In this document: positions 6,992 to 17,082 of the stretch, piece after piece
Numbering within the stretch: the stretch's first letter is position 1
Layout of the letters: each line of letters begins with the position of its first letter
Origin: an uncultured delta proteobacterium
Lineage (GTDB): Bacteria; Myxococcota_A; Polyangia; Polyangiales; Polyangiaceae
Reading direction: 5' to 3'
Length of the DNA stretch: 64,000 nt
Assembly (NCBI GenBank): GCA_963782055.1
Contig: CAWAIF010000003.1
Location: 5,472,001 to 5,536,000 of the forward strand
Notes under the pieces: model-generated
What the model was told of the DNA's origin: nothing
The model's database searches: none
Seen by the model: only the letters and a program-made list of their open reading frames with translations
Position numbers and translations under genes: made by a program

Positions 6992-7016
6992 GATGGGCTC
7001 ATCATAGCGCTCTTTG

Positions 7017-7100
7017 CGGAAGGAAGAGGACTCGCACCCCACGCGGAGACCGCGCGCGCTGTTTTCGAGACAGGCCCGACGCTTGGTCGGTTTTCCTTCC
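7017..7100 (-). tRNA. Non-canonical 8/4-fold tRNA-Ser(CGA)
   Basis: GGAAGGAA/TTCCTTCC 8-bp acceptor; CCGAC/GTCGG D-stem with 5-nt loop; anticodon loop CT-CGA-AA (one C.C mismatch atop the stem); long variable arm CGCGG-TCT-CCGCG; 4-bp T-stem GGGG/CCTC with loop TGCGAGT; G73. Confidence 0.8.
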
Positions 7101-7139: not shown

Positions 7140-7643
7140 TCACGCGCAGAACACCTGCCACGGGGCGGGGACGGTGGCGGGGTCGACCTGCAGCGCCGTC
7201 GTCGCCGGCAGCCACGAGGGCTTCACCGGCTTGGAGAGCAGGCGCATGTGCGCCTCCTCCGGCGTGCGGCCGCCCTTCCTGTCGTTGCAGGCGCGGCACG
7301 CGGTCACGATGTTCGTCCAGTCCGTCGGGCCTCCGCGGGCGCGGGGCACGACGTGGTCGTAGGTGAGCTCGCGCATCGCCCGGCGGGCGCCGCAGTACTG
7401 GCAGCGGAAGGCGTCGCGGGTGAAGACGTTCAGCCGCGAGAAGCGGACCGTCCGCCGCACCGGCACGTGGCCGCGCGTCAGCCGCACCACCGCGGGCGCC
7501 CGCACCGCGAGCGCCTGCGAGCGGATGATCTCGTCGTACTCGGCGACGACCTCGACCTTGCCGAGGAAGCTGAGCACGATCGCGCGCTGCCAGGGGATGA
7601 CCCTGTGCGGCGCCATCGCCGGCGTGAGCATGAGTGTCCGCAT
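7140..7643 (-). CDS. HNH endonuclease (McrA-like stand-alone family)
   Basis: 'WQRAI', 'FSRLNVFTRDAFRCQYCG', 'LTYDHVVPRARGG', 'NIVTACRACNDRKG'. Confidence 0.95.
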   Translation of the reverse strand: MRTLMLTPAMAPHRVIPWQRAIVLSFLGKVEVVAEYDEIIRSQALAVRAPAVVRLTRGHVPVRRTVRFSRLNVFTRDAFRCQYCGARRAMRELTYDHVVPRARGGPTDWTNIVTACRACNDRKGGRTPEEAHMRLLSKPVKPSWLPATTALQVDPATVPAPWQVFCA

Positions 7644-7734
7644 GACCGTTACCTTCGTCTCTTCCTCTTCACGAGGCTGCTGACGCGCGGCGCGGCTCGA
7701 GCCGGACGATGCCACCCGTCCGGGGTGGCGTCGG

Positions 7735-7806
7735 CGCCTCCGCCAAGAGTCGAACTTGGCCACCGAGCTTCGGAGGCTCGAGCCTGGATTCCGCCAGGAC
7801 GGAGGC
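7735..7806 (-). tRNA. Atypical tRNA-Arg(CCG)
   Basis: GCCTCCG/CGGAGGC acceptor; 1-nt linker; 5-bp D-stem CCTGG/CCAGG with loop CGGAAT; 6-bp anticodon stem, loop CT-CCG-AA; 3-nt variable loop; CCAAG-TTCGACT-CTTGG; G73. Confidence 0.8.
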
Positions 7807-7808
7807 CT

Positions 7809-7873
7809 GCGTCCACGGGTCCACGCGCCCTTCGGGTCGTGGGCCGGCCTTCGGCCGGACCTCGTGTGGACGC
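7809..7873 (-). ncRNA. Putative multibranch structured RNA or leader directly 5' of the atypical tRNA-Arg
   Basis: Outer stem GCGTCCAC/GTGGACGC enclosing hairpins CCGGCC-GAA-GGCCGG and CCACG..CCC-GAA-GGG..CGTGG. Confidence 0.45.
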
Positions 7874-7877
7874 CATC

Positions 7878-7896
7878 GGCGACGCCGTCCTGACGC
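7878..7896 (-). promoter_or_regulatory. Candidate operator/promoter motif GCGTCAGGACGGCGTCGCC
   Basis: 17/19 identical to 15900..15918, which also precedes an irregular tRNA. Confidence 0.6.
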
Positions 7897-11890: not shown

Positions 11891-13444
11891 GTGCTCATGA
11901 AAGGTCCCCATCGGCTCGGCGGTCGTGCGCTCGGCGCCGCCGCGATGCTGCTCTCGCTCGCCGCGGCCCCGGCCGCGCTCGCACAGGCTCCGGCGACCGG
12001 TGCGCCCCGTCCCGACACGGGCGCCGGGACGCCCTCGCCGGCCGGCACCGGTAGCGCGACGCCGCCGCCGGCCGACACCGGTAGCGCGACGCCGCCGCCG
12101 GCCGACACCGGTAGCGCGACGCCGCCGCCGGCCGACACCGGTAGCGCGACGCCGCCGCCGGCCGACACCGGTAGCGCGACGCCGCCGCCGGCCGCGCCTC
12201 CACCCGCGGCCGGTCCGGTCCTCGCCTTGAGCGACTGCGTCTCGTACGCGCTCGCGCACAACCCCGACGTGCTCACCAGCGACAAGCAGGTGGACGAGGC
12301 GCGCGCGTCCCGCGCGGAGACCGCGGGCCACTTCGGGCCGAAGGTCCAGCTCGACGGCAACCTGCAGATCTGGGACGGCCCCTTCCAGATCAACTTCGGC
12401 GGCGGGTCGATCCAGGTGCGCGACCAGTTCACCTGGACCGCATCCGCTTCGCTGATCCAGCCGCTGACGCCGCTCTTCGTGATCTACGACGAGTACAAGC
12501 TGCGCGACTACGGCGTGGACGTGGCGCAGATCCAGAAGAACGCCACGCGCCGCGACGTGGCGTTTCGCGTGGCCGAGGCGTACCTGCGGCTGCTGGAGGC
12601 CACCCGCCTCTCCAGCGTGGCGACCACCTCGGTGGACGAGCTCATGGGACAGCAGCGCCAGGCGGAGTCCCTGCACCAGAACGGCGTCATCGGCAAGAAC
12701 GACCTCCTGCGCGCGGTGCTCGCCGTCGCCAACGCGCGTCAGCTCGTGATCCAGTCGCGCGGCATGGTCACCCTCGCGCAGGGGCGGCTGGAGATGCTGA
12801 TGGGGCGGCGTCACGACGCGCCGTTCGAACCGGTGCCCTACACCAACGCGCCACCTCCGCTCGAGCCGTCGACGGTCGCCGACGCCGAGACGCAGGCCGC
12901 GACGAAGCGGATGGAGCTGGTCTCGCTGGACCGGCGGATCGACCAGGCGGGCATGGCCCTCTCCGTCGCCAAGCTGAAGCTCCTGCCGCAGGTGAACGCC
13001 ATGGGCACCTACCAGCACTTCGACGGCTCCGCGTTCCAGCAGCACGACGCCGCGTTCGTCGGGCTCACGGGCACGTGGGACATCTGGGACTGGGGCACCA
13101 CCTGGAACGGCATCAAGGAGGCGCGCGCGCGGAAGGACCAGGCGCAGCTCGCGCGGACCAAGCTGGAGGACGAGGTCCGCCTGGAGGCGCGCCAGGCGTT
13201 CGTCAACGCGAACACGGCGAGGGACGCGCTGGCGGTGGCCAAGACCGCCGTGACCCAGGCGGAGGAGAACTACCGCATCGTGACCAAGCGGTTCCAGGCC
13301 GCCGCCGGCACCTCCTTCGACGTCGTCGACGCCGAGACGCTCCTGACCCGTGCCCGCGCCCAGGTGGAGACGGCGACGTACGACTACCTCATCGCCCGCT
13401 CTGCCCTGCAGCGGGCGACCGGGGCGACGACGCCGCGCCTCTGA
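11891..13444 (+). CDS. TolC-family outer membrane efflux protein
   Basis: Signal peptide, 'ALAHNPDV', 'WDIWDWG', 'DVVDAETLL'. Confidence 0.9.
   Translation: MLMKGPHRLGGRALGAAAMLLSLAAAPAALAQAPATGAPRPDTGAGTPSPAGTGSATPPPADTGSATPPPADTGSATPPPADTGSATPPPADTGSATPPPAAPPPAAGPVLALSDCVSYALAHNPDVLTSDKQVDEARASRAETAGHFGPKVQLDGNLQIWDGPFQINFGGGSIQVRDQFTWTASASLIQPLTPLFVIYDEYKLRDYGVDVAQIQKNATRRDVAFRVAEAYLRLLEATRLSSVATTSVDELMGQQRQAESLHQNGVIGKNDLLRAVLAVANARQLVIQSRGMVTLAQGRLEMLMGRRHDAPFEPVPYTNAPPPLEPSTVADAETQAATKRMELVSLDRRIDQAGMALSVAKLKLLPQVNAMGTYQHFDGSAFQQHDAAFVGLTGTWDIWDWGTTWNGIKEARARKDQAQLARTKLEDEVRLEARQAFVNANTARDALAVAKTAVTQAEENYRIVTKRFQAAAGTSFDVVDAETLLTRARAQVETATYDYLIARSALQRATGATTPRL
12041..12190 (+). repeat. 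30-bp tandem repeat x5 (ADTGSATPPP) in the TolC N-terminus
   Basis: gccgacaccggtagcgcgacgccgccgccg; four exact copies and one with a single mismatch. Confidence 0.97.
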
Positions 13445-13458
13445 GCCGCGTTCCCCCC

Positions 13459-13540
13459 CCTGTCCGCCCCTGTCCGCCGTCCCCTGTCCCGCCTGTCCGC
13501 CCTGTCCCGCCTGTCCCGCCTGTCCCCCCTCCCTGTCCCC
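13459..13540. repeat. Low-complexity CCTGTCC short repeats
   Basis: About eight CCTGTCC units within 80 bp. Confidence 0.8.
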
Positions 13541-14327: not shown

Positions 14328-15761
14328 ATGCTCAAGCCGCGCTACCCCTACTACCTCGCCAACCACGCGCTGGAGCCCAACGCCGACCTGGTCGTGCACG
14401 ACAAGTACACCGGCGAGGTGGCCACGCGCGTCGCGCTCGCCGACGCTCCGGTGATCGAGGCGTCGATCGCCGCCGCCGCGCGCGCGGCGAAGGCGATGCG
14501 CGAGCTGCGTCCCTACGACCGGCAGAGGGTCCTCGAGCACTGCGTGGCGCGCTTCCGCGAGCGCGCCGACGAGCTGGCGCTCGCCCTGTGCATCGAGGCG
14601 GGCAAGCCCATCCGCGACGCGCGCGGCGAGGTGGCTCGCCTGGTGGATACCTTCAAGGTCGCCGCCGAGGAAGCGGTGCGCATCGACGGCCAGGTGCTCA
14701 ACCTGGAGATCTCCCCGCGGGCGAAGGGCTTCCGCGGCTTCACGAAGCGCGTGCCGCTCGGGCCGTGCTCCTTCATCACGCCCTTCAACTTCCCCCTCAA
14801 CCTGGTGGCGCACAAGGTCGCGCCGGCGATCGCCGCGGGCTGCCCGTTCGTGCTCAAGCCTTCCGAGCGCACACCCGTCGGCGCGCTCATCGTCGGCGAG
14901 GTCCTCGCCGAGACCGACCTGCCGGAGGGCGCCTTCTCGGTGCTGCCCGCGCTCGTGCACGACGTGGGGCCCTTCGTGGAAGACGACCGGCTTAAGCTGC
15001 TCTCCTTCACCGGCTCGGGCAAGGTGGGCTGGGACCTGAAGGCGCGCGCCGGCCGCAAGAAGGTGGTGCTGGAGCTCGGCGGCAACGCTGCGTGCGTCGT
15101 CGACGCCGACCAGAAGGACCGGCTGGACTTCGTCGTCGAGCGCATCGTCTTCGGCGGCTACTACCAGTCGGGGCAAAGCTGCATCTCGGTGCAGCGCGTC
15201 CTCGTGCACGAGAGCCTTTACGACGCCGTGCGCGAGCGCCTGGTGGCCAAGGTGTCCGGCCTGGTCGCCGGTAACCCGCGCGACGAGACCACCTTCCTCG
15301 GCCCGATGATCGACGAGGCGGCGGCGGCGCGACTGGAGGGCTGGATCGAGAGCGCGCGGGCGCGCGGCGCGAAGGTGCTCTGCGGGGGCGGGCGCACGCG
15401 CGCCACGATCCAGGCCGCGGTGCTGGAGAACGTCCCGCGCGACGAGCCGCTTTGGGCGCAAGAGGCCTTCGGCCCGGTCACGGTCCTCGAGCGCTTCTCC
15501 GACTACGAGGACGCGCTGGTCACGGTGAACGACAGCCGGTACGGCCTGCAGGCGGGCGTGTTCACCGACAGCCTCTCGCACGCGACGCGCGCCTGGGACG
15601 AGCTCGAGGTGGGCGGCGTCGTGGTGGGCGACGTGCCGAGCTTCCGCGTCGACAACATGCCCTACGGCGGCGTGAAGGGCTCCGGCCTCGGGCGCGAGGG
15701 CATCCGCTGGGCGATCGAGGACATGACCGAGCCCCGGCTGCTGGTCATCCGCGATCGGTGA
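14328..15761 (+). CDS. Aldehyde dehydrogenase family protein
   Basis: 'ITPFNFPLNL', 'SFTGSGKVG', 'LELGGN', 'GQSCIS', 'EAFGPV', 'PYGGVKGSGLGREG'. Confidence 0.96.
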   Translation: MLKPRYPYYLANHALEPNADLVVHDKYTGEVATRVALADAPVIEASIAAAARAAKAMRELRPYDRQRVLEHCVARFRERADELALALCIEAGKPIRDARGEVARLVDTFKVAAEEAVRIDGQVLNLEISPRAKGFRGFTKRVPLGPCSFITPFNFPLNLVAHKVAPAIAAGCPFVLKPSERTPVGALIVGEVLAETDLPEGAFSVLPALVHDVGPFVEDDRLKLLSFTGSGKVGWDLKARAGRKKVVLELGGNAACVVDADQKDRLDFVVERIVFGGYYQSGQSCISVQRVLVHESLYDAVRERLVAKVSGLVAGNPRDETTFLGPMIDEAAAARLEGWIESARARGAKVLCGGGRTRATIQAAVLENVPRDEPLWAQEAFGPVTVLERFSDYEDALVTVNDSRYGLQAGVFTDSLSHATRAWDELEVGGVVVGDVPSFRVDNMPYGGVKGSGLGREGIRWAIEDMTEPRLLVIRDR

Positions 15762-15899: not shown

Positions 15900-15918
15900 G
15901 CGTCAGGACGCCGTGGCC
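15900..15918 (+). promoter_or_regulatory. Candidate operator/promoter motif GCGTCAGGACGCCGTGGCC
   Basis: 17/19 identical to the motif at 7878..7896 (minus); ends 19 nt before tRNA-Cys. Confidence 0.6.
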
Positions 15919-15937
15919 CCGCTCGTCTCCAGCCGAC

Positions 15938-16009
15938 GAGCCGGTTCTCTGACGAGGAGCGCGGTCTGCAACACCGTGCGCGAGGGTCTGATTCCCTCCC
16001 GGCTCTCCA
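15938..16009 (+). tRNA. Atypical tRNA-Cys(GCA) with encoded CCA
   Basis: GAGCCGG/CCGGCTC acceptor, U73, CCA; anticodon arm GCGGT-CTGCAAC-ACCGT; T-arm GAGGG-TCTGATT-CCCTC; short D-arm lacking GG. Confidence 0.82.
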
Positions 16010-16011
16010 CC

Positions 16012-16044
16012 GGCGAGCGCCGCTGCGGCGCCGCCGCGCTCGCC
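16012..16044. other. GC-rich hairpin directly after tRNA-Cys, between convergent units
   Basis: GGCGAGCGC...GCGCTCGCC 9-bp stem. Confidence 0.5.
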
Positions 16045-17082
16045 TCACCTCCAGAACGCGGCCACCACCGCGGCGCGCGACTCGACCTTCGCCTTGCCGA
16101 GGATGGCGCTGACGTGCAGTTCCACCGTCCCCACCGCGCAGCCGAGCTTCTCGGCGATGACCTTGTTGGCGTCCCCCAGCACCAGACACCCGAGCACCTG
16201 CGTCTGCCGCGGCGTCAGCCGCCACGCCCGCGCCATCCGCCGCAGCAGCGCGTCGTCCACGCCCTGCGCGCCGCTGTGGAACACCACCAGGCGGTGGGTG
16301 GGTACACCCCGGGCCGCCACGCGGAGCACCGTGGCGCGCGGGTCCTTCCCGGCGGCGACGGCGGCGATGCGGTCGCGCACCCGGCGGCCGTCGGCGACGA
16401 GCAGCTCGCGCCCGGCGCGGCTGGCGAGCACCGGCCGAGAGCGGCCGTCCACCAGGAACGCCGCCGCCCCGAGCAGGTCCAGCGCCGCCGCGAGCCCCAC
16501 CTCGTGGAGGCGGGCGTGCGCGAGCGACTCCTCCAGGCGCAGCCGCTCGACCAGGACCGGCACCACCGCGCGCAGCACGTCCCGCTCGCGCACGCCGAAG
16601 CGCTCCGGGCGGAAGGCGCCGAGCCACGCGAGCAGGCGCGGGCCGTCGCAGAGCAGCACGCGGATCTGGTCCATCCCCCCCACGCCGATGCGCGGGAAGA
16701 TCTCCTCGTAGAGGCGCGCCGTGGTCGGCGTGATGCCCCCCGCCTGGATCTCCGGCAGCCGGAGCACCCGGTTGCGCTGGGCGCGCTCCGGGCGGAGCGG
16801 GTCGTAGGAGCCGCTGGCGCTCGGCGACCGGCGCAGGAATGCCCAGTACGGGCGCAGCCCCTTGCGGAAGGGCGAGGGAAACGTCGTCAGGTACCGGTAC
16901 TCCCAGCCGGTGGCGTCGGCGGCGGGGGCGAGCCGGTGCGCCACGGCGTAGGTACTCCTCAGCAAAGTGCCGAGTTGGGGAACTACCCAGTCGAGGACGC
17001 GGTTCCCCGCCGGCTCGGCGCGGACGCGCGCGCGGAGCTCGCGGAGCGCACGGCGCTCATCGGCAGTCGAAGCGCTGGACAC
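16045..17082 (-). CDS. LuxR-type HTH transcriptional regulator
   Basis: C-terminal 'LTPRQTQVL..LVLGDANKVIAEKLGCAVGTVELHVSAILGK'. Confidence 0.9.
   Translation of the reverse strand: MSSASTADERRALRELRARVRAEPAGNRVLDWVVPQLGTLLRSTYAVAHRLAPAADATGWEYRYLTTFPSPFRKGLRPYWAFLRRSPSASGSYDPLRPERAQRNRVLRLPEIQAGGITPTTARLYEEIFPRIGVGGMDQIRVLLCDGPRLLAWLGAFRPERFGVRERDVLRAVVPVLVERLRLEESLAHARLHEVGLAAALDLLGAAAFLVDGRSRPVLASRAGRELLVADGRRVRDRIAAVAAGKDPRATVLRVAARGVPTHRLVVFHSGAQGVDDALLRRMARAWRLTPRQTQVLGCLVLGDANKVIAEKLGCAVGTVELHVSAILGKAKVESRAAVVAAFWR

Follow-up and report, generated by a model that had tools for sequence, protein, structure and literature searches.

The window (the whole stretch of 64,000 nucleotides analyzed here) contains a compact tRNA-Cys(GCA) gene at 15938–16009, and our analysis confirmed that this gene is real and intact rather than an isolated case of decay. 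The family to which it belongs has nearly all of its members in long tRNA arrays that include an HNH gene. The gene shares the secondary structure of that family together with the covariation between its D- and T-loops, follows an upstream motif, and coexists with a canonical tRNA-Cys gene elsewhere in the genome. The reading that we favor, and consider rather probable, is that it is a supernumerary array tRNA-Cys of the tRNA-Pyl format, which was probably stranded by shrinkage and splitting of its array and is likely transcribed from a host promoter, charged by CysRS, and held as a reserve decoder of UGC and UGU codons.

Anatomy of the compact tRNA-Cys gene

The gene and its neighbors were delineated as follows.

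15938–16009, + strand: compact tRNA-Cys(GCA) gene, CCA encoded; scores 95.7 bits against the family model, of which it is itself a member
15938–15944/15999–16005, + strand: acceptor stem, 7 of 7 paired, followed by a 1-nt connector
15946–15949/15954–15957, + strand: D stem with the 4-nt loop TGAC, followed by a 2-nt connector
15960–15965/15973–15978, + strand: anticodon stem of 6 bp, with the anticodon GCA at 15968–15970
15979–15981, + strand: variable loop of 3 nt
15982–15986/15994–15998, + strand: T stem, 5 of 5 paired, with the T-loop TCTGATT
16006, + strand: discriminator U73, followed by CCA at 16007–16009
14328–15761, + strand: aldehyde dehydrogenase gene upstream; no functional link to the tRNA-Cys was found
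16045–17082, − strand: convergent gene of a LuxR/GerE-type regulator

The first-pass annotation had described fully paired acceptor and T stems, the anticodon GCA, U73 and an encoded CCA between an aldehyde dehydrogenase and a LuxR gene, together with an unusual T-loop and a D-loop lacking GG, and all of these were found at this position. It had omitted the 6-bp anticodon stem, the 1-nt connector and the 3-nt variable loop. The gene had also been called hidden. This holds for the Rfam model RF00005, which gave no call across the window or on a 251-nt segment, and which also misses a compact homolog in another genome (G214), but not for ARAGORN, which calls a tRNA-Cys with default settings. Long open reading frames overlapping the gene were all rejected by the GC-frame filter, and Rfam families other than tRNA gave chance-level matches at the locus (DUF3800-VI at 21 bits, below 35). 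Folding of the sequence was modest evidence, as 1–2 of 200 shuffled sequences were as stable, and one further position in the genome satisfies all 22 pairs of the family fold if G-U pairs are allowed. The reality of the gene therefore rests on homology.

A family of compact tRNA-Cys genes

The family comprises 64 distinct homologs (98 loci), mostly from Polyangiaceae plus two viral contigs. At E ≤ 5e-4, matches were obtained in 33 of 383 genomes of the family, including the host's own, and in none of six congeners. Thirty loci were examined, namely the query, 26 full-length homologs, one distant member (L050) and two spurious loci, with seven weaker match places left out of this set. A search with a degenerate pattern further yielded 24 GTDB stretches (nine of them new; one from Planctomycetota and two labelled Proteobacteria), 48 metagenome stretches (two incomplete), and the two viral contigs, which are 393 kb and 117 kb long. 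No full-length family match was present among PLSDB plasmids or INPHARED phages, and nothing exceeded 52 bits in a phylum sample of 149 other genomes, where the six top matches that we inspected were canonical tRNAs or compact tRNA-Trp. The nearest homolog (L176/L187) lies inside an intact array, is identical at 70 of 72 positions and has the same T-loop; its two differences form one compensated pair, and merely 12–14 of 40 positions match in the 40-nt flanks.

The profile of these genes is that of supernumerary, horizontally spread genes, as reported for L-arrays: a canonical tRNA-Cys is present, none of the six congeners has the compact gene, and the family occurs on viral contigs and in one Planctomycetota record. 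Several other small tRNAs were seen during these searches. A distant compact tRNA-Cys lies amid phage-like genes with 38% GC and scattered tRNAs (L183/L184), a compact Trp(CCA) with a 3-nt D-loop and a long anticodon stem occurs both as a stand-alone gene (L126) and at L011:2474-2544, and a compact Met(CAT) with a shrunken D arm occurs at L021, L085 and L086.

Fold and covariation of the family

The consensus fold has 22 pairs, on which RNAalifold and direct counting agree, in a BLAST-derived alignment (A1) of 27 rows, 26 of them distinct, from which L050, L011 and both spurious loci were omitted. Its layout runs from a 7-bp acceptor stem through a 1-nt connector, a 4-bp D stem with a 4-nt loop and a 2-nt connector to a 6-bp anticodon stem, a 3-nt variable loop and a 5-bp T stem. 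In the homolog alignment, 99% of the stem cells are paired, compared with 49–60% in slid controls, and two-sided changes occur in 11 of 22 pairs, a level that none of 500 shuffles equaled. Anticodon and stem features were counted on A1, because the degenerate pattern prescribes the anticodon together with portions of two stems. Invariant in A1 are GCA, U33, A37, U54, A58, G1-C72, A2-U71 and U73, and U73 was found in 58 of 59 members of the wider homolog set.

Canonical class I features that are absent include the 2-nt connector, G18G19, the 5-bp anticodon stem, the 4–5 nt variable loop and the T-loop TTC. The compact gene keeps the 7/5 acceptor branch, an anticodon loop of 7 nt that has U33 and A37, the 7-nt T-loop, U54-A58 and a 19-56 pair. 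Its core is non-canonical and has no Levitt pair.

A compensatory switch in the D- and T-loops

The covariation predicts three contacts at the elbow of the window copy.

15950–15992, + strand: region of the predicted elbow contacts
15952 (A) with 15989 (U), + strand: predicted 19-56 contact
15951 (G) with 15988 (C), + strand: predicted 18-55 contact
15950 (U) with 15992 (U), + strand: predicted 16-59 contact

Across 60 distinct ungapped rows (query included), positions 19 and 56, the third nucleotides of the D- and T-loops, are G-C in 38, A-U in 20, and G-U and A-C in one each, such that 58 of 60 are Watson-Crick pairs; both positions were left free in the degenerate pattern. In A1 alone, the counts are 14 G-C, 11 A-U and one other. 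The A-U state requires five changes on a 69-column tree (4–6 on bootstrap trees), of which well-supported branches force only one. The first D-loop nucleotide and T-loop position 59, which the pattern limits to pyrimidines, are U-U in 36 rows, C-C in 21 and G-C in three, so that U-U or C-C is found in 57 of 60. At 18-55, we counted 40 G-U, 15 G-C and five A-G. The tetraloop contains GG in 34 of 59 homologs, the T-loop contains TTCGA in 12, and the loop TCTGATT recurs in two other homologs.

The absent GG and the odd T-loop are thus, as the covariation indicates, one compensatory switch and a feature of the family rather than separate defects. A pseudogene with independent damage to its D- and T-loops was ruled out by the same covariation. 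The matched loop changes would preserve the L-shape of the tRNA, to which the 6-bp anticodon stem would contribute by compensating for the reduced length of the connector, D-loop and variable loop, and the elbow would be held by A19-U56, G18-C55 and U16-U59.

A probable remnant of a broken array

Homologs of the compact gene are usually surrounded by other tRNAs, with at least three other array tRNAs within 1.2 kb in 62 of 70 distinct contexts; the usual neighbors are Gly before (52 contexts) and Arg(TCT) or Ile after. In the sole context without any array tRNA, the sequence ends 124 nt upstream. The array regions hold 3–56 tRNA calls each, and 24 of 28 array loci contain an HNH gene with 49–65% identity to that at 7140–7643 of the window. 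These long, same-strand runs of tRNA genes fit the definition of L-arrays given in PMC8421152. The calls in two arrays (L113, L118) include tRNAs with the stop anticodons CUA and UUA, possible suppressors or miscalls. No other tRNA lies within 1.2 kb of the window copy, which is accordingly an orphan outside any long array. Another fragment of what was probably one array occurs elsewhere in the window.

7733–7806, − strand: array-type tRNA-Arg(CCG)
7140–7643, − strand: gene for an HNH endonuclease like those found inside arrays (Pfam HNH_5, 2e-16)
7016–7100, − strand: array-type tRNA-Ser(CGA), missed by ARAGORN with default settings

The tRNA-Cys had been proposed as the third member of an irregular tRNA set, 8 kb from the HNH locus, and a genome-wide relaxed search had been suggested for finding more such genes. 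Our whole-genome search (BLAST with 438 array tRNA calls plus 44 isotype HMMs) bore this out: it returned exactly three full-length array-type tRNAs, with Ser(CGA), Arg(CCG) and Cys being the only full-length matches that are not housekeeping genes. This three-tRNA set is, in our reading, the remnant of an L-array. A single locus from the Cys-anchored metagenome search (L192) shows a minimal arrangement, leader-Cys(GCA)-Arg(CCG)-Ser(CGA)-rtcB, with the tRNA trio of the window.

The tRNA-Cys is divergent from Arg(CCG)-HNH-Ser(CGA), at a distance of 8.1 kb, and Arg(CCG) directly follows Cys in four homolog contexts; because of these two observations, one inversion may have separated the two units. 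No breakpoint signature was found, only GC-rich chance repeats. The flanks of the window Cys show no trace of neighboring array tRNAs, and a decayed Gly(TCC) upstream, which was considered as a candidate, gave no HMM match. Synteny with the aldehyde dehydrogenase was rejected: congeners gave matches of 44–48% only, and no family tRNA lies within 1.5 kb of the 14 closest orthologs of that gene in the family.

In the congeners, the end states of the array are Met plus HNH in two and HNH alone in four, and one of them also has a separate long array. Among 30 loci found by anchoring on rtcB, array-type tRNA matches, some of them weak, lie near 13, and arrays often end at rtcB; the compact Cys was within 1.5 kb of none. 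The compact Cys is therefore dispensable and is not preferentially kept, since it is absent from all six congeners and from these 30 loci, and the HNH remnants of the congeners carry Met or nothing. The idea that shrunken arrays preferentially retain Cys was unsupported once the search was not anchored on Cys.

Upstream motif and candidate transcription signals

Three candidate signals for expression were found near the two units.

15902–15927, + strand: bipartite motif GTCA[A/G]-N16/17-CGTC, ending 10 nt before the tRNA-Cys; likely promoter of host stable-RNA genes
7869–7894, − strand: second copy of the motif, 62 nt before tRNA-Arg(CCG)
16010–16046, no strand assigned: GC-rich hairpin from the tRNA 3′ end to the LuxR-type gene, −24.6 kcal/mol, with 4 of 200 shuffles as good

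The hairpin is a possible terminator, which lacks a U tract and was missed by the terminator scan. Comparison of the two array units first revealed the motif, which makes its presence there a post hoc observation. In an independent test on the host genome, 14 of the 43 housekeeping stable-RNA units had it in the 150 nt upstream; these were the hand-picked first genes of units after false-looking ARAGORN calls were dropped. The background is 24 among 5169 called ORFs and 0.26% of windows taken at random. Spacers of 16 and 17 nt carry the 14 matches, and other spacers 0–1. The result was replicated in a congener (G005), with 12 of 28 units drawn from the top 30 among 41 tRNA loci (L262–L291). 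The motif precedes none of 22 units in G214, which belongs to another genus, and none of 34 units in other genomes. It often precedes a sigma-70-like promoter, and its distance to the gene is 11 nt for the housekeeping Val(GAC), compared with 10 nt for the window Cys. A sigma-70 promoter scan found none at the window gene. A further host example lies at 757–781 (− strand) of the window, before tRNA-Arg(CCT).

The motif is genus-specific, and its place before roughly one third of housekeeping tRNA and tmRNA units hints at an alternative sigma factor dedicated to stable RNAs. The ECF41 promoter signature, as given in the available part of PMC3426412, consists of −35 TGTCACA, 16 nt and −10 CGTC; the −10 element and the GTCA-to-CGTC distance agree with the motif, whereas the −35 flanks differ. 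Two other interpretations were rejected. Most intact arrays and 27 of 28 rtcB genes have no copy of the motif ahead of them, making it a host stable-RNA feature and not a signal of an array or rtcB regulon. A 19-nt exact operator shared by the two units had 29 genome matches at three mismatches and was uninformative, and the likeness of the spacers in the two motif copies reached only a p of about 0.01.

Intact arrays open differently, with a short ORF (22 of 24) and a GC-rich hairpin that has a run of T (21 of 24), which were found in 1% of random kilobases. This leader and hairpin are absent at the window Cys, and we read the change as an apparent move of the gene from array control to host control. 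In the arrays at L097–L118, L021, L022 and L192, the leader ORF stops 27–52 nt before the conserved hairpin with its T run, an attenuator-like arrangement. The leaders are also Cys-rich (4.2% versus about 1.1% in host genes), strikingly so in L097 and L192. Upstream of the host rtcB (L096:3290-3345), two direct repeats of ~16 nt lying within an AT-richer stretch form a possible operator.

Host genome, proposed decoding role and alternative explanations

The host genome (7.58 Mb, 72% GC) contains a canonical tRNA-Cys(GCA) at C3:5807615-5807687 and a single CysRS gene; the compact gene is therefore a spare. The statement of the first-pass annotation that U73 and GCA are CysRS determinants agrees with the available part of PMC9976931, which names them as major determinants, and the compact gene has both. 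The same part describes a G15:G48 element specific to the E. coli tRNA-Cys; this element is impossible in the compact fold, and by inspection the host's canonical tRNA-Cys has G15 and C48. In the Anabaena array, which translation stress induces, 23 of 26 tRNAs are charged on induction (PMC8421152), and TrcR represses the trn operon (PMC10272220), as far as the available parts of these reports describe. According to the accessible portion of PMC6337575, synthetic tRNAs that combine the Pyl format with standard elbow pairs are active in E. coli translation, and Pyl-format tRNAs with U73 were inferred there to receive glycine.

Some further features of the genome were also recorded. At C3:6242435-6242514 (− strand; L154), a tRNA-like gene whose D arm is of the Arg type and whose anticodon loop is expanded lies in a lower-GC (64%) region. 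A duplicate 3′ half of tRNA-Lys(TTT), at C3:3428071-3428116 (L155) and 10 kb from the gene, is likely the attachment site of an integrated element, and a sequence that nearly duplicates the 5′ part of tRNA-Arg(CCG), but has a CCT anticodon and an unrelated 3′ end, lies at C2:407911-407996 (− strand) just upstream of the intact gene. The window contains a 30-nt coding repeat with at least five copies at the start of an outer-membrane efflux gene (12003–12212) and a 9-nt tandem repeat after that gene (13483–13530).

According to the explanation that we favor, the array would have shrunk and split, leaving Cys alone, and transcription would start from the motif acting as a promoter with ECF-like spacing. 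A leader of a few nucleotides would be trimmed by RNase P, and the single CysRS would charge the tRNA through U73 and GCA. By analogy with the Anabaena trn operon, it would provide backup decoding of UGC and UGU under translational stress.

The gene might instead be a silent relic, a once-functional array tRNA that was recently stranded and is unexpressed, whose flawless structure is a legacy of earlier selection within the array. Its redundancy with the canonical tRNA-Cys, its absence from six of six congeners, the loss of the array leader, and the lack of any read or contig over 15755–15988 in three small-share soil sequencing runs are consistent with this. As no close relative dates the split, a recent relic that has not yet eroded is possible. 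Nevertheless, the flanks have lost every trace of array tRNAs, yet no pair in the gene is broken, and a genus-specific stable-RNA motif stands upstream at nearly the distance seen for Val(GAC). We consider this explanation unlikely. Less probable again is that the altered fold and anticodon arm evade toxins or phage-defense nucleases that cut the housekeeping tRNA-Cys, and that the compact tRNA matters only then. The occurrence of the family on the two large viral contigs, the arrays that end at rtcB, and an anticodon arm unlike that of the housekeeping gene would fit such a replacement, but no nuclease or toxin gene is linked to the locus, and this role is compatible with the favored explanation and not exclusive of it.

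We consider it very improbable that the RNA, charged or not, serves outside the ribosome as a cysteine donor, decoy or regulator, with its core barring ribosome entry. Irregular polycistronic tRNAs without demonstrated translation provide a precedent in the available part of PMC5389517, and the core without a Levitt pair would agree with it. However, the 7/5 branch and the elbow pairs are retained, as is the 7-nt anticodon loop including U33 and A37, homologs stand among ordinary decoding tRNAs, and no partner enzyme or second CysRS was found in the genome or the 28 array loci.

Meaning of the compact family

Taken as a single locus, the compact tRNA-Cys is a redundant tRNA. L-arrays are known as an element; the structural variant of tRNA inside them appears to be new. 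A literature search that covered few subscription papers found no published account of a naturally occurring Pyl-format tRNA-Cys in bacteria, nor of the shapes of the tRNAs in these myxobacterial arrays. In the available part of PMC8421152, Dataset S1B lists tRNA clusters of Minicystis rosea and S1C, by column count, one GCA gene. We found a compact Cys copy in the record named there plus a canonical Cys gene in that genome, so two Cys genes stand against one GCA entry and tRNA catalogues appear to undercount array genes.

The Pyl-type core has so far been known from tRNA-Pyl, one mitochondrial tRNA and laboratory hybrids, and here it is widespread in natural bacterial tRNAs for a standard amino acid. 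The family supplies phylogenetic proof of core contacts, including a natural swap from G19-C56 to A19-U56 and a Sec-type 16-59 pair, and offers a new scaffold for orthogonal tRNA design. The orphan Cys would be a snapshot of a mobile spare-tRNA array that is breaking up and coming under host promoters. A broader proposal, whose chances we put a little short of even, is that myxobacterial arrays and large phages carry a fourth natural tRNA architecture for a standard amino acid, with a tRNA-Pyl body, a tRNA-Sec-like tetraloop elbow and a 19-56 pair toggling between G-C and A-U. Such tRNAs would be charged by ordinary CysRS and would decode on the bacterial ribosome, would have been overlooked by standard covariance models, and would here be domesticated into a genus-specific stable-RNA regulon of an alternative sigma factor.

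Comparison with known systems

The following comparisons refer to the available parts of the cited reports. The array remnant resembles L-arrays and the trn operon of Anabaena sp. PCC 7120 in its supernumerary isodecoders and patchy distribution (PMC8421152, PMC10272220), and L-arrays are also linked to HNH and rtcB and occur on viral contigs (PMC8421152). The window differs in having only three tRNAs left, in two divergent units with a host-type motif ahead, and intact relatives of its array differ from the Anabaena trn operon by the leader ORF and hairpin.

Regarding tRNA shape, selC* tRNA-Cys shares U73 and GCA with the compact gene (PMC5389517), and selC* tRNA-Cys, allo-tRNAs and tRNA-Sec share a D tetraloop and a longer anticodon stem (PMC5389517, PMC7609411). 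The C16:C59 or U16:U59 contact of tRNA-Sec is matched by positions 16 and 59 of the compact family. However, that group has an 8/4 or 9/3 branch and a long variable arm (PMC5389517), whereas the compact tRNA-Cys has a 7/5 branch, a 3-nt variable loop and a 4-bp D stem, and no second CysRS was found. The synthetic ZtRNA (PMC6337575) likewise combines a Pyl scaffold with standard D/T-loop pairs, of which G19-C56 is seen in 38 of 60 homologs; the compact tRNA-Cys is natural and has a 4-nt D-loop. With A19-U56 and C55 (GA in the D-loop and UCUGA), the window copy lacks the GG/UUCRA signature that defines ZtRNA.

The closest likeness in layout is to tRNA-Pyl and the type I mitochondrial tRNA-Ser(UCN) (PMC7609411), which share the 1-nt connector that links the acceptor stem to the D stem, the small D-loop, the 6-bp anticodon stem, the 3-nt variable loop and the 7/5 branch. 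The 18-55 and 19-56 contacts are kept in the compact tRNA-Cys and in mitochondrial tRNA-Ser(UCN), unlike in tRNA-Pyl (PMC7609411), and tRNA-Pyl has CUA and G73 where the compact gene has GCA and U73. Its anticodon and U73, its 7/5 branch and its 3-nt variable loop rule out an identity as tRNA-Pyl, selC* tRNA-Cys or an allo-tRNA. In contrast to both tRNA-Pyl and mitochondrial tRNA-Ser(UCN), the compact tRNA-Cys is a bacterial gene of chromosomes or phages for a standard amino acid.
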